DNA of 64,000 nt from Eledone cirrhosa (Eukaryota), in the NCBI GenBank assembly GCA_964016885.1, contig OZ024756.1, positions 43,586,001-43,650,000 on the forward strand, read 5' to 3'. Positions 23,982 to 56,705 of this stretch are shown one piece after another. Position 1 is the stretch's first letter, and each line of letters begins with the position of its first letter. Below the pieces are notes generated by a model. It had not been told where the DNA came from and did no database searches. It was given only the letters and a program-made list of their open reading frames with translations. The position numbers and the translations under genes are program-made.

Positions 23982-24296
23982 TTTTTTCTGTAAGGAAGAC
24001 TACAAAGTCAAGTTTCATTTTCAATACTGAACAGGTGATGGTTATATTGGGGTAGTCTTCAATTGTTACGTTGTAGTCAAACTGTGACTCTAATGAAACA
24101 TAACAATTGTTAGTTTTTGGAACTGGCACAGTTTTTAGACTGACTTCTGTTTCGTTACTTCCATGTGTTACACTCCATTTAAACAGGACAATCTCTTCAG
24201 AATTTGGGACAAGATTTAAATGACATCTGAAGGTAGATATCTGGTTAATTGTGTGGTTCTCAGTGTCAGACGTCAGATCTTTCATAGAAGATTTAG
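23982..24296 (-). CDS. IgSF paralog 1, Ig-like domain 2 exon (315 nt, phase 1-1)
   Basis: CAG|...|GTAAGC. FRC...LFKWSV...NC...S.FDYNVTIEDYPNITITC gives an Ig-like C-W-C spacing with several N-glycosylation sequons. Confidence 0.85.
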
Positions 24297-24321
24297 CTGA
24301 AAAGATAAAATATAAATAAAT

Positions 24322-24505
24322 AATTGTTTCTACTTTTGGCACAAGGCCAGCAATTACCCAGTACATTACTGGTACTTTATTTTATCGACCCCGTAAGGAT
24401 GAAAGGCAGAGTGAACCTCGGCGGGATTTGAACTCAGACCGTAAATGGACGTAACTATGCTGGAAAGCATGTCCGACCCTCTACTGATACTGCCAATCCA
24501 CCACC
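24322..24505 (-). mobile_element. SINE inserted just upstream of the Ig exon 2 acceptor, only in paralog 1
   Basis: Full SINE, absent at ~56720-56745. Confidence 0.8.
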
Positions 24506-25313
24506 TGCCAATAATAAATAATAAAATGAAATCTTGGCTTGTTTCATTGATACAAACAACTAAAATGTTGAATGAGGAGGTTGCTTCTGATAGGACACCC
24601 TGGAAGGCATGTGTGAGGACTCTGTCTCAACAATACTCTCTCATTGAAGAAGAGAAGAATATCACCCAAATATTTTGTGATGTAATGTGATCTCAGACAG
24701 CCTAGCAAAGAATGTAGGTTTTATAAGTGATTGATAAATAGGAGCAGTTAACAGTAAGGGCTCACGGAAAACTTTATTAGATACTCAGAGGACTCCATAG
24801 AAGTAGTTGATAGCTTCTGTTACCTGCATGACTAAACTAGCAGCGGAGGTGTGTTTTGAAAGTACATTACACACACAAGAGAGAAACATTACACACACAC
24901 AGGAAATATTACATTACACATACACACTATAGTGAAATATTACAGACACACGTTATAGAGAAAAATTACACACATACAAACACAGAGGAAATATTCCTTT
25001 ACACATGCACATGAAGATTGCAGCGTCTTCACAGAGGATTGCCGTCTCATTGATTCTTCGTTATCGTCCCATCTGCATCGATGACTTCGTAGATGACTTT
25101 CTGGGCCAGCTGTAGATCTGCATGGTTTACGACAGAGTTAACACACACATACATACATACATACATTCACATACATACATACATACAGATACATACATGT
25201 GTACACACATATATATATAATATAGATAACACTAAAAACAATAATAAGTATTTCTAACTGAAATGAAACAACAACAAATGTGATGACTAATGAGAAAATG
25301 GAATAAAACTTAC

Positions 25314-25640
25314 CTTTTACAGACTTCAAAAGTGAGTAATCACCAGGACTTGTATAACATTGATAATTTGTTGCATCATTGCAATTAAGCTTATTTTTCC
25401 AGCAGTGATACTCTCCATTCCATCCCTTAACTGCTGGTAATTTACAGTCAAAACCAGGTGGTAATATTCCTTTGTTATATTTATTTGTAATAGGGTTGCG
25501 AGACATTTTTATAAAAATTGACCCATTTTTAAGGACACTCAAGACAGTTGGCCAACTGAGGTCATCAGTTAATTTACATGTTATATTTAATCTAGAAAAT
25601 GATCCAACTTCAAATTCAGGTGTTATATTTAGTGATACCC
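25314..25640 (-). CDS. IgSF paralog 1, Ig-like domain 1 exon (327 nt, phase 1-1)
   Basis: TAG|...|GTAAGT. GVSLNITPEFEVGSFSRLNITCKL...GFDCKLPAVKGWNGEYHCWKNKLNCNDATNYQCYTSPGDYSLLKSVK shows an LNITC B-strand and a DxxxYxC F-strand with extra cysteines. Confidence 0.85.
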
Positions 25641-26696
25641 CTATATATAAAATATGGAAGAGGTGAAAATGATTAGATAAAGATTTATTTAAAAAATAAC
25701 ATATATAATGGCAGGTAGAGAAAAACTAAGATAAAGAAGAAAAAGAAGAAGAAGCATGGAGACTGATGGATAGAAACATGGAGAATGAGGTGGTGTGTAT
25801 GACAGTAAAATTTGTGTATCGCCTTTGTTAGATTGGTTGCCCCATTAGATAAGTCGGGTCAGGTGACCATGCCTTGCTCATATAGAACTATTTCTGGCTT
25901 GGTTTCTACAGCTGGATGCCCTTCCTAATGCCCACCATATTTGTAGTGTGGTGGGTACTTTTAGTTGTGACTCCTACATGACCACTTTACAGTGTGTACT
26001 TGAAGATTTTGTTGTGTCACCTATACAACCACATTTACAGTGTAGTCTTGGTGCTTCTTGCGGTGTTTCTTACATTGCCACTTTACAGTGAGTACTAGGT
26101 GCTTTGTGTTGTGACACATACACAGCCACATTTACAGTGTGTACTGCGTGATTTTTGTTGTGACACCTACACAACCACTTCACAGTGTTGGCTGGGTGTT
26201 TTTTGTTGTGACACCTACATGACCACTGTAGTTATATATACAAGGGTGACTGGTAACTCTGAAGATATGTGCTAACATTTATTGCATTTATAGAAAATGT
26301 TTAATGTTTTATGTTGGCAATTGAAGATTCAATTATGCTAGGAATTTTGTAGATCCTTTCCAGTTATGACTTATAGCATTAACACCAAACATCCTGCAAA
26401 CATTAATATATGCTGTATGATACCTACATTACACATATAAATTGAACATAGCCGATATACGAATGTTCCTGTCGTACACACCCAACCATTATGGAACACA
26501 TATTGCATTACAATTTAGGAAATAAGAACACCAATAGATAAAAATCAAGCTAATACAACCATGTACACTTTCATATATTTTACATACACACATCTAATGG
26601 TAACAAGAGCGAATGTATAAAAATACATGATTCGGTCCCTTAACCCCTCAACACTTACATCTAACGTAAAACTGATACACATATATATATTTATGT

Positions 26697-53955: not shown

Positions 53956-54021
53956 CTAATTAAAAACCTGTAGTTATATTTACATTAAATCCTTAAATAT
54001 ACTAAGTTGTATATCACTAAC

Positions 54022-54134
54022 CTTTTGTATCAGATTTTTGCGAATTACAAAGAAACAAATTAAAAAAATAAAAAGTATGAAAAATGTGATAATTCCAAGG
54101 ATGATAGCAGCAATAGTTCCACCATCTAATCCAC
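54022..54134 (-). CDS. IgSF paralog 2, transmembrane exon
   Basis: (S)GLDGGTIAAIILGIITFFILFIFLICFFVIRKNLIQK with canonical splice sites. Confidence 0.85.
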
Positions 54135-55370
54135 CTGTTATCAAGATAGAAAACAGCAGCAATAAGTATTGTTTCTAATATAGCCACATGATTTCAAATT
54201 TGGTGGGGTTATAGTTGATTATATGAACCCCAGTATTTCACTGGTACTTTATTTTATCAATCCCAGAAAGGTGAAAGACCAAGTTGTCGTCAACAGGATT
54301 TAAACTCAGAAAGTATAGAAGCAGGACAAATACCACAAAGCATTTTGTCCAACGTTCTAACAACAGTAATAATAATAATTTCTAACAATTTAAACAATTC
54401 TTGATACAAGGCCAACAATATAGAGGAAGAGGAAAGTCTATTTTATACCCCAATATTTATCTGGTACTTTATTTTATTAATCACAGCTTTGACACTAAGC
54501 ACATCTCATCTATAATCACTGGACAGGTTTTACGGGGGCAAAACTAAATGGAAAGTGACCCAAGTGTAGACACCTAGCAAGATGTTTGGATAACATCCAT
54601 GAGCTCGGCTGGTCTCACTTGGAGATCCAGCCAAATCAGTTGGAGATACAGTGTGTGCTGGGTATTTTTTGTTGCGACACCTACATGACTAATTTACAGT
54701 GTGGAATGGGTACTTTTGTTCGTTGCTCCTACACGACCACTTTACAGTGTGTGCTGGAAGCTTTTTGTTGTGACACCTACACGACCACTTTACAGTGTGG
54801 GCTGAGAGATTTTGTCAGGACACCTACATGACCACTTTGTAGTGTGGGCTGAGAGATTTTGTCGGGACACCTACACAACTACTTTACAGTGTGGGCTGGG
54901 TGCCTTTTACTAGGCACCAAAACACTCAACTGACAGTTTAGACTGGGCACGTTTTGTTGTGACACCTATACGACATCTTTACAGCGTGGACCTGCTGCCT
55001 TTTATTATGTGTCACACTTGACCATTTTACAGGGTGGACTTGGTAGGATTCTTCATGTCATCAACACTACAATTTTAGAGGGTGGACTGGTTGGTTTTCT
55101 TCATGTCACCAGCATTACCACCGTACAGTGTGGTCTGGGTGTTTGGGTGATTTTTGTCAGGTGCAGCTTAGAGCATGTCCAGCTTTCCATGCTTGAGGCA
55201 TGGGTTCAACAAGAGAGATGTGTTCAAACATATACATATTCCCACATGGAAACATACAAACATGCTTATATACACACATGTATGTATTGATAGAGGCAGA
55301 CATGTATTTAAAAATATGGAATCCCACTCATGAATACATGCACACACAGGTAGATATAGTGATGCAGTGA

Positions 55371-56321
55371 TACCGATGTCCTGTAATCAAGCACCGAAAC
55401 ATCGGTCTGGGAAACCTTTACAGCTGACGATGGAAACTCCTTTCTTCCTTTATCCTCCTGTTCCGTCCTAACCACCATCCTAAACCTTGTTTTTAGTAAC
55501 CACACAGCTCCTTTTGTTTCATAACTTTTTGTATTTACCACTGTGACCCTACCTGCTTTGGTCGATCTGTGTACCCTCCACACTTTCGCATCGACCCTCC
55601 CTTCTCTCTTCCCTTCTCCTCGTCACTCTCGTTTTTTTCTATCTCCCTCTCTCTATCCATCCGTTCGGTTTTGATTGTTGACATGTTTACACGTGCCGAG
55701 GTGGCCTCTCTGTCCGCAATCTTTGTGGCACGTTTTTACCACCGTCGTAAAAAACCCTTCTGGAATATCTCCCTTTCCCTTCTCCTCCTCACTTTTGGTT
55801 GCTCGTGTCTCTCTCTCTCTCTCTCTCACTTTCTCCTGTCTATGTGAGAGGCAGCACAGTTATACCAGCTGAGTCGTAGCTGACCACAGGCTAAAGTCTC
55901 CCAGGCTGGCCACAACTTACTTTCCTTATTTTTCTATGGTTACTTTTTAGCATGTTTCATTCACCCGTGTCTTCCCACGATGGGACCTGTCCACTTTTTT
56001 TTCTCCTATTGCTTTCCTATTTTTTCCCCTTCTTCCTCTCTCCTCATCTTCTCCCCCTGTTCTTCCTCCTTTCCCTCTCTTTCCTTTTCTCTCTCCTTTT
56101 TTCTCCCTCTTTTTTTCTCTCTTTCTCTCTTAATAAAAGGCATCGGGCGCTCCCGAGCAACACCGATATCCTGTAATCAAGCACCGAAACATTGGTCCGA
56201 GAAACATTTACAGCTGACGATGGAAACTCCTTTCTTCCTTTCTCCTCCTGTTCCGTCCTAACCACCGTCCTAAACCTTGTTTTTAGTAACCACACAGCTC
56301 CTTTCGTTTCATAAACTTTTG
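55371..56321 (+). mobile_element. Non-coding insertion with ~160-bp terminal direct repeats (partial tandem, Penelope/retrozyme-like)
   Basis: 55372-55530 matches 56162-56320 (period ~790). Ends in (TA)n. Absent from paralog 1. Confidence 0.55.
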
Positions 56322-56390
56322 TATATATATATATATATATATATGTATATACACAGAAATGTAATACATAAAAGAAAATAATTTGCTCAC

Positions 56391-56705
56391 TTTTATCTGT
56401 AAGGAAGACTTCAAAGTCAAGTTTCATATTCAATACTAAACAGGTGATGGTTATATTGGGGTAGTCTTCAATTGTTACGTTGTAGTCAAACTGTGACTCT
56501 AATGAAACATAACATTTGTTAATTTTTGGAACATTCACATATTTTAGACTGACTGTTGCTTCGTTACTTCCACGTGTTACACTCCATATAAACAGGACAT
56601 ACTCTTCAGAATTTGGGACAAAATCTAAATGACATCTGAAGGTAGATATCTGGTTAATTTTGTGGTTCTTAGTGTCAGACGTCAGATCTTTCATATAAGA
56701 TTTAG
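56391..56705 (-). CDS. IgSF paralog 2, Ig-like domain 2 exon (315 nt, phase 1-1)
   Basis: CAG|...|GTGAGC, open frame, about 82% amino-acid identity to paralog 1. Confidence 0.85.

Follow-up and report, generated by a model that had tools for sequence, protein, structure and literature searches.

Described receptor systems and the Eledone cluster

In the CEACAM family, as seen for CEACAM1 with its CEACAM3/5/6 decoys and for the Xenopus ceacams, one receptor with an ITIM and with V-type and C-type domains is accompanied by copies that are specific to a species and end in a short tail or a GPI anchor, the N domain evolves fast and gene conversion is limited to exons. The GPI forms of CEACAMs have been described as arising through stops in transmembrane (TM) exons (PMC2832619), and an exon-limited loss of synonymous differences, together with fast non-synonymous change, has been reported for Xenopus CEACAM receptor/decoy pairs (PMC5112662). 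The Hydractinia Alr family, in which allelic hyperpolymorphism controls allorecognition, is an invertebrate cluster of the immunoglobulin superfamily (IgSF) whose V-set domains are unusual; its exons have been shuffled, and some members have ITIM tails. The CAR/CTX group (CAR, ESAM, BT-IgSF, CLMP) combines a V+C ectodomain, a single TM and a PDZ-ligand-like C-terminus, and the SIRP, CD33-related Siglec and similar paired receptors carry an ITIM with a further tyrosine motif behind it.

Close to the end of contig C17 of Eledone cirrhosa, about 13 clustered loci were found to show counterparts of these features. The loci encode V+C IgSF membrane proteins in a leader-(V-C)n-TM layout; exon shuffling has given rise to two-, four- and six-domain forms, and 3 of the 34 Ig exons of the cluster are broken. 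The window, i.e. the whole stretch of 64,000 nucleotides that was analysed, contains the following features of genes A, B and C, the receptor mentioned being a plus-strand gene of the same cluster:

40331 to 41560, minus strand: putative promoter and 5'UTR exons, located ahead of the leader exon as conserved blocks with an identity of 90-100% between several copies
38591 to 38711, minus strand: gene A leader exon, signal-peptide-like, 40 codons, with a phase-1 donor and predicted splicing
25314 to 25640, minus strand: gene A V-type Ig exon, domain 1, AG/GT, phase 1-1
23982 to 24296, minus strand: gene A C-type Ig exon, copy 1, 315 nt, AG/GT flanked, phase 1-1
21043 to 21155, minus strand: gene A TM exon, 113 nt (that of the receptor is one base longer, 114 nt)
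18786 to 18791, minus strand: start of the putative terminal exon of gene A, with a stop after one codon and a tail of about 8 residues
58956 to 59279, minus strand: gene B V-type Ig exon, likely encoding domain 3; its identity with the V domain of the ITIM receptor is 83%
56391 to 56705, minus strand: gene B C-type Ig exon, copy 2, 315 nt, AG/GT flanked, phase 1-1
54022 to 54134, minus strand: gene B TM exon, 113 nt
53751 to 53835, minus strand: second, partial copy of a variant TM exon, in a gene B intron
52692 to 52697, minus strand: start of the putative terminal exon of gene B, with its stop
10596 to 10716, minus strand: gene C leader exon, coding part equal to that of gene A; the V and C exons of gene C lie left of the window

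A 191-base leader block was 98-100% identical in seven full-length copies, and the terminal-exon block of gene A was 93-99% identical in six other copies. The mapping of leader and TM exons between the domains ruled out a single giant multi-Ig gene, and a Thr-rich open frame (18274-18774) was rejected as a mucin stalk, since it lies downstream of the TM exon and behind an in-frame stop. The sequence-only reading had assigned both copies of the C-type exon to Ig domain 2. That of gene B, however, is probably domain 4 of a V-C-V-C protein with predicted splicing, because one more V and one more C exon sit just beyond the window edge. In either gene the exon would code for the C-type Ig domain nearest to the membrane, and both genes belong to the array.

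The plus-strand gene (C17:43.664-43.798 Mb) contains four tail exons whose phases are compatible, and in its long tail the ITIM LHYAEL precedes another tyrosine motif. The assembly has a gap at C17:43,664,041. LHYAEL is also kept in O. sinensis (P0039) and in cuttlefish (P0053), and in all three it agrees with the consensus [ILVS]xYxx[ILV] given for ITIMs in cytoplasmic tails (bioRxiv 10.1101/2022.03.04.482883). The ITIM exon occurs a single time in the Eledone cirrhosa genome and is absent from O. sinensis isoform X5 and from the Argonauta and O. vulgaris records. The receptor ends in GSAV or GSSV, a PDZ-ligand-like C-terminus. The uncharacterised LOC115221679 (O. sinensis XP_036366773, O. 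vulgaris CAI9737726, Argonauta GAB1601880, cuttlefish P0053) and its paralogs belong to the same family and share with the cluster the leader, the V and C cysteine patterns and the TM sequence, whereas the window genes lack the tail and the Eledone array is a genome-specific expansion. As judged from the sequences, the plus-strand gene is likely the ortholog of LOC115221679, with a common tail. A literature search, outside which subscription journals and supplements lay, yielded no paper on the receptor family and none naming five of the LOC115221679-type loci.

The copies share the leader, V, C and TM exons of this receptor, and in both Ig domains diversification outpaces the change at synonymous sites. 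The likeness of the cluster to CEACAM is one of convergence, not homology; the best CEA match was at E=0.21 and none was obtained with the genome's own profiles, the V domain has five cysteines, unlike the CEACAM N domain, which lacks a disulfide, and no ITAM partner was found in the cluster. Compared with the CAR/CTX group, the cluster has an ITIM and forms an expanded, fast-evolving family, and its C domain has three invariant cysteines, whereas four cysteines and two disulfides have been described for the C2 domain of CLMP (PMC10056934). In contrast to SIRP and Siglec systems, no activating member with a charged TM was seen in the cluster.

At slightly less than an even chance, the approximately twelve tandem, tail-less copies of this conserved cephalopod V+C receptor with an ITIM may compete with it for a pathogen ligand or serve as decoys, sending no signal themselves; their outer domains show a dN/dS above 1. 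The receptor would dampen cell activation through its ITIM and a microbe or parasite would bind its ectodomain; the copies, with short tails or GPI-like ends, would capture the same ligand and send no inhibitory signal. Exon-limited gene conversion would reset the synonymous sites and selection would drive new surface residues.

It is unlikely, though deserving of weight, that the diversified V+C ectodomains constitute a code of self and non-self, binding homophilically and with the ITIM receptor reading 'self', as Hydractinia Alr does in allorecognition. A single clustered locus, V-type domains hardly recognised by Pfam, exon shuffling and an ITIM tail agree with such a code and are similar to features described for the Alr family (bioRxiv 10.1101/2022.03.04.482883), and the PDZ-ligand-like end of the receptor is as in CAR-family adhesion proteins (PMC10056934). 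However, the cluster exons mapped were V- and C-type only, with the TM closely behind the C domain in relatives, and an I-set plus Fn3-like ectodomain was not seen, whereas Alr combines V and I-set domains with an Fn3-like fold; moreover, nearly all of the copies are without a signalling tail. To our knowledge, octopuses are solitary and do not fuse, which also counts against an identity code.

Identity of and selection on the C-type exon pair

The C-type exon was modelled as a seven-strand beta-sandwich (pLDDT 91.8). The positions typical of an Ig C-type domain, C24 (B strand), W40 (C strand) and C88 (F strand), were invariant in 15 of the 15 intact paralogous C exons, as was C64, so that the cysteines and the tryptophan were indeed kept. 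The exon was placed in Atlas C1-set/C2-set_2 at 0.93, and a profile of 13 Octopus relatives matched antibody (Fab) light chains (E 9e-4). Pfam returned no Ig family for the window exons and a weak ig match (E 0.025) in 3 of the 16 V exons; homologs of the C exon were not found by word-based search, and among the PDB sequences the profiles built from this genome had matches at E>0.3 only. The model aligned to SIRP-gamma with a Z of 10.1 (rmsd 2.4, 97 residues), a value tied with those of many non-IgSF beta-sandwiches. The Ig set could not be named by fold search, because the top Foldseek matches were generic beta-sandwiches.

The exon limits, read on the minus strand (24296-23982 and 56705-56391), coincided exactly with those proposed for both copies from the sequence alone. 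Between the copies, 23 nucleotide differences fell in 18 of the 104 complete codons (105 had been counted earlier), with no purely synonymous codon, no stops and no indels, and the replacements P>N, T>Y, I>Y, E>T and K>I were all recovered. Pathway counting permits 0.5 of a synonymous step within P>N. The TM exons of genes A and B differed at three positions, all of them non-synonymous as had been observed before; alone, these are too few to be informative. Assembly error is unlikely to lie behind the differences of the pair, and consensus error was rejected as their main cause: public DNA contigs X1-X3, from one sample that is possibly the assembly's own, carried the copy 2 letter at no fewer than seven exon positions among the matches listed, and variants of the window pair recur across paralogous exons.

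The formal tests bore out a dN/dS above 1, as the sequence-only reading had claimed from the window pair. Neutral simulation from either copy gave zero synonymous codons in 7 of 3000 runs (mean about 5.1), and the pairwise codon likelihood test of the window pair against dN/dS=1 gave p=0.001-0.002, or p=0.015-0.035 with the 14 single-base codon differences only. In ten close paralogous C exons omega was 2.9-3.1 (p 1-5e-4 against dN/dS<=1), and in the eight exons left without the window pair it was 2.5-2.6 (p 0.002-0.006). A tree-free count without the pair gave a ratio of 1.74 (p=0.053), which counts against selection. M2a without the pair (LRT 17-22) was marginal and M0 was relied on, because recombination inflates M2a, with simulated LRT values of up to 17.5; no purifying class was found by M2a in the C exon. 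The sites of the C exon picked out as selected were 3, 35, 53, 55, 57 and 100. Multi-base mutations were rejected as the cause, with omega unchanged at 3.1-3.4 after six multi-base columns had been dropped, and so was base-composition bias (synonymous share 0.21-0.26 at an equilibrium AT of 50-90%).

The copies could also be redundant and near-neutral, with a high ratio resulting from low dS (by conversion or synonymous constraint) plus chance, but this is improbable and already disfavoured. It agrees with a pS below that of the flanking intron, both in the window pair (p=0.03) and in the mean of 45 pairs (0.037 vs 0.074), with a C exon that has no purifying class and with the broken Ig exons. 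For the window pair, pN (0.094) did not differ significantly from the flanking intron (0.081, p=0.37), and in seven hand-picked pairs pN was significantly above the flank in three and lower in two. Conversion, however, resets dN equally with dS, and the omega obtained without multi-base columns was above all 41 neutral simulations with shuffled segment trees, in which the maximum was 1.71 and the observed value was reached in none. In the V exons pN was 0.18 against 0.04 in the flank, and no stop was seen in the ten C exons, when about 4-6 are expected under pseudogene decay (broken copies had been removed beforehand). Pseudogene decay leads to an omega near 1. The earlier conclusion of positive selection instead of decay therefore stands on the rejection of dN/dS<=1 and the lack of stops, with the qualification that the ratio is partly due to low dS, to which exon-limited gene conversion likely contributes. 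Recombination was detected in the V exons (permutation p 0.001) and was borderline in the C exons (p 0.069).

V-type exons and the relation of the copies to the receptor

The larger divergence lies in the V domain, which had been left unweighed in the first reading. In the V exon, M2a was preferred over M1a (LRT 41-45), with an omega of 4.4-4.7 at 17-24% of sites, and pN exceeded pS in 66 of 66 pairs, which are non-independent. The pairwise test of the gene A and gene B V exons gave an omega of about 1, probably stemming from saturation. A V-set domain is marked by a nine-strand fold with a C'' strand, a Cys-Trp-Cys pin and a D-x-x-x-Y-x-C motif. The V domain of the cluster has the cysteines and a D-x-x-x-[YF]-x-C motif and lacks the C-strand Trp; it was placed in Atlas V-set at 0.90-0.92, the single-sequence fold model had a pLDDT of 37, and the gene B V exon resembles V-set and unnamed mollusc clusters.

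All 16 V domains of this genome form one clade (100/99), and so do all 15 C domains (98/90). The V domain of the receptor is 69-85% identical to 9 of the 15 other, tail-less V domains and 38-42% identical to its orthologs. The ligand-binding domain of these nine copies is thus nearer to the receptor of the same species than the receptor is to its orthologs, as in decoy systems; this similarity within the genome could also come from recent duplication alone. The V domain of gene A (54% identical to that of the receptor) and both window C domains (45-48%) are a poor fit for strict mimicry. Between the O. vulgaris and O. sinensis receptors, the differing residues were 39 of 104 in V, 2 of 102 in C and 0 of 119 in TM plus tail. 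The C domain is conserved between these Octopus orthologs yet diversifying in the Eledone cirrhosa copies, an observation that counts against their being decoys. Independent expansions are also present in other species of Octopus, where the ends are GPI-like, mucin-bearing or tail-less.

A reproductive role, in recognition at the sperm, egg or spermatophore surface under sexual selection or conflict, is quite improbable; the V domain diverges fast between species, and the other class in which a high dN/dS is common is that of reproductive proteins, but a conserved ITIM with GPI-like or short-tail derivatives better suits immune regulation. It is very doubtful that the copies have acquired novel specificities as opsonin-like or pattern-recognition receptors and do not mimic the ITIM receptor: their strong divergence from the receptor and from each other, C domain included, and the independent Octopus expansions would fit, but they have neither a signalling tail nor a charged TM residue through which binding could be reported, and nine V domains are still 69-85% like that of the receptor.

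Beyond the interpretation of the Eledone copies as decoys, we propose with reserve that coleoids may possess their own self-sensing ITIM receptor, from which octopods would have repeatedly built hypervariable tail-less or GPI arrays, as a counterpart of CEACAM-type decoys or as a self-identity code. If so, this would be a first candidate cephalopod locus for either system. Little has been described of immune recognition in cephalopods, and the cluster offers a named, testable locus in which a dozen copies evolve fast beside a single conserved ITIM receptor. If the copies are decoys, the design of an inhibitory receptor plus decoys would have arisen independently in a mollusc, including GPI-like ends from TM exons. 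The cluster may also hint at the way in which microbes or parasites of octopuses attach to the cells of their host, with relevance for aquaculture.

Tails and transmembrane ends

None of the other twelve loci, window genes included, had a tail exon in the stretches examined, and the homology of gene A to the receptor stops about 200 bases past the TM donor. Among the TM exons all three end phases occur; those of the tail-less loci lead to short tails or GPI-like signals. Three of the 12 TM exons read are variants with a stop directly after the hydrophobic stretch, putatively GPI-like, with an uncertain poly-T length; the GPI-like ends hinge on this run length, where an assembly error may have occurred. 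No activating partner (ITAM or charged TM residue) was seen in the cluster, nor would one be required for non-signalling decoys, and the TM helices of genes A and B contain no charged residue. A Lys was observed in one GPI-like copy.

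Selection on the Ig exons

Genes A and B carry paired exons for a C-type Ig domain (C exons). Their predicted exons are listed below with the start of gene C, the next gene, whose V-type Ig (V) and C exons lie left of the window.

Predicted exons of genes A and B, with putative splicing, and start of gene C (window positions)
38711-38591, minus strand: gene A leader
25640-25314, minus strand: gene A V exon
24296-23982, minus strand: gene A C exon, AG/GT ends
21155-21043, minus strand: gene A transmembrane (TM) exon
from 18791, minus strand: gene A putative last exon, stop after one codon
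59279-58956, minus strand: gene B V exon
56705-56391, minus strand: gene B C exon, AG/GT ends
54134-54022, minus strand: gene B TM exon
10716-10596, minus strand: gene C leader, start of gene C

Gene B has the same putative last exon as gene A and, by predicted splicing, extra V and C exons past the window edge; no leader was found for it in the map, and an assembly gap lies immediately upstream.

The sequence-only reading had claimed that all differences between the two C exons change a residue, with dN/dS well above 1. Both intervals were indeed 315-nt minus-strand exons of phase 1, flanked by AG/GT, with 23 base differences in 18 codons and the residue altered in all 18; the three base differences between the TM exons were likewise all non-synonymous. 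Under neutral simulation, with a substitution spectrum taken from non-coding blocks aligned between the gene copies, zero synonymous codons were obtained in 7 of 3000 runs per starting copy (mean of about 5), and a codon likelihood test on the pair bore out the proposed excess (p=0.001-0.002). Nine of the 18 altered residues fell within residues 35-63 (p 0.04, post hoc).

Since that exon had been chosen post hoc, independent family-wide data were sought. Genome searches placed every related exon that they detected (16 C and 17 V) on contig C17 at 42.56-43.70 Mb, and a broken 17th C exon turned up in the local map of the cluster. The test set comprised the 10 closest intact C exons, with five distant and two broken ones excluded. 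The expected dN/dS above 1 across paralogs was recovered: the one-ratio omega was 2.9-3.1 (p 1-5e-4), and the LRT of M2a over M1a was 31-39. Omega was 2.5-2.6 (p 0.002-0.006) without the window pair and 3.1-3.4 without the six columns needing multi-base steps, and neutral simulations (n=41), built from four segments, each on shuffled trees, reached maxima of 1.71 for omega and 17.5 for the M2a statistic. By a conservative tree-free count, the ratio was 2.1 (p 0.007) and fell to 1.74 (p 0.053) once the window pair was removed. For the V exons (12 of the 16 intact ones tested), the M0 omega was 1.3-1.6, and M2a placed 17-24% of sites at 4.4-4.7. Positive selection in this undescribed cephalopod receptor family is a real signal.

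The selected C-exon sites 35, 53, 55 and 57 lie on two adjacent strands, three of them alternating, and thus likely form one exposed face, as judged from the strand pattern rather than coordinates. The predicted fold of the C exon was a seven-strand beta-sandwich (pLDDT 91.8) with C1/C2-set likeness by language-model features; its model gave a Z of about 10 against both SIRP-gamma and VCAM-1, level with unrelated sandwiches. The V exon showed likeness to V-set and unnamed mollusc clusters, and a profile from 13 Octopus relatives matched antibody light chains (E 9e-4), Fc receptors and TCR alpha. Invariant cysteines numbered five per V domain and three per C domain (alignments A1 and A2), and the odd cysteine of each could form an inter-domain disulfide.

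Low dS and probable exon-limited conversion

Over 45 non-independent pairs, C-exon means were 0.037 for pS, 0.104 for pN and 0.074 for the adjacent intron; the high ratio is in large part due to low dS. In the window pair, pN (0.094) was not above the flank (0.081) and pS was under it (p=0.03). Among seven pairs chosen by hand (the window pair and six whose flanks aligned over a long stretch), pN was significantly higher than the flank in three and lower in two. The simplest account is exon-confined conversion followed by rapid amino-acid change, a combination also reported for Xenopus CEACAM receptor/decoy pairs (PMC5112662).

By contrast, the V exons showed the opposite pattern, with pN 0.18, pS 0.10 and flank 0.04. 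Divergence of V exons L017 and L018 from the remaining ones was about 30% at non-synonymous sites and 19% at synonymous sites, and only about 5% in the flanking introns; these two are an old exon lineage within homogenised flanks. An in-frame 11-codon tandem duplication opens V exons L019 and L020.

The ITIM receptor and its tail-less copies

The cluster holds a single ITIM-bearing gene and about twelve derived copies that lack its tail exons, with the ectodomains under diversifying selection. The profile had 36 matches among 1.84 billion representatives searched; the 28 looked up comprised 25 uncharacterised Octopus proteins, one from Argonauta and two unnamed. The tail exons of one long-tailed family member, Octopus LOC115221679, were located in this genome 3' of the only plus-strand locus, with compatible phases. 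The tail of this receptor contains the ITIM LHYAEL, a proline run, a second tyrosine motif and a PDZ-ligand-like end. LHYAEL is common to this genome, O. sinensis and a cuttlefish protein; the second motif conforms to the ITSM consensus in cuttlefish, and here only with exon read-through.

The ITIM exon is single-copy in the genome, and similarity between gene A and the receptor ends about 200 bases beyond the TM donor. The 12 translated TM-type exons ended in all three phases; in three, a stop directly after the hydrophobic stretch resembled a GPI signal, a feature that hinges on poly-T length, and a hydrophobic C-terminal end was also present in several Octopus relatives. P0001 and P0034, Octopus family members from other species, carry V-C units in repeat, together with mucin-like linkers rich in Thr.

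The V domains of this genome formed one clade, as did its C domains, the latter joining the Octopus receptor clade (94/94). Between O. vulgaris and O. sinensis, the receptor differed at 39/104 V, 2/102 C and 0/119 TM-plus-tail residues. By this comparison, the receptor in other species is under the same pressure as the copies.

The favoured, though tentative, reading is that the copies are non-signalling decoys or competitors: the ITIM receptor would be inhibitory, something foreign would bind its outer domains, and the copies would soak up or compete for this putative ligand, sending no signal. Against this, gene A shows low identity with the receptor (V 54%, C 48%), and the reading does not account for C-domain diversification in the copies. 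That the cluster is instead a self-identity code seems unlikely. Redundant, neutral copies are a more doubtful reading, and a role in reproduction is still less probable. Independent pattern recognition by the copies is the least probable of all.

The CEACAM system works alike (PMC11646289, PMC5112662, PMC2832619), although the octopus family itself is not CEACAM; Hydractinia Alr, of which the octopus family may be a member, shares some features with it, as does the CAR group (PMC10056934), whose four-cysteine pattern the octopus family lacks. An ITIM-bearing Ig receptor is already reported from oyster (PMC11841013), and ITIMs in molluscs are therefore not new. The words "octopus" and "cephalopod" were absent from the searched text of a review on IgSF proteins of invertebrates that appeared in 2025 (PMC11999971), and no paper was found for five family locus names in a search of article main texts, largely outside subscription journals.

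Cluster layout and mobile elements

The 860-kb map shows about 13 loci, each built as leader-(V-C)1-3-TM, within 1-2 Mb of where the 44.67-Mb contig ends. In C17 42.80-43.20 Mb, genome searches detected neither V nor C exons, and the single gene model crossing this stretch and a gap is uncertain. Leader and last-exon blocks were 92-100% identical between copies, and the Ig exons had diverged. The assembly gap G000:C17:43664041-43664240 separates the 5' end of gene B from the receptor gene, which is inverted. Identity across the gap is 85% between the first V exons on its two sides and 96% between the first C exons, so this could be either a haplotype join or an inverted duplication of recent date.

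Within the window, a 2.1-kb inverted repeat (98.8% identical) at 45624-50680 encloses a 443-aa open frame; it had no Pfam match at E 0.001 and is presumably a young Penelope-type retroelement. A fragment resembling it lies at 41978-42598. The first coding intron of gene A contains a broken LINE (32840-35642, minus strand) in which frames for an endonuclease and a reverse transcriptase were recognised, and retrotransposon fragments were observed at 62090-63568 (plus strand; RT and PHD finger) and at 23280-23921 (minus strand; no Pfam match), the start of the latter adjoining the gene A C-exon donor. Additionally, an ACC/AAC-rich repeat past the putative stop (18212-18770 and 52349-52675) yields long Thr-rich open frames, and long TTC-type and TA-type simple-repeat tracts were detected at 59324-60516, 31121-31889 and 26862-27293.
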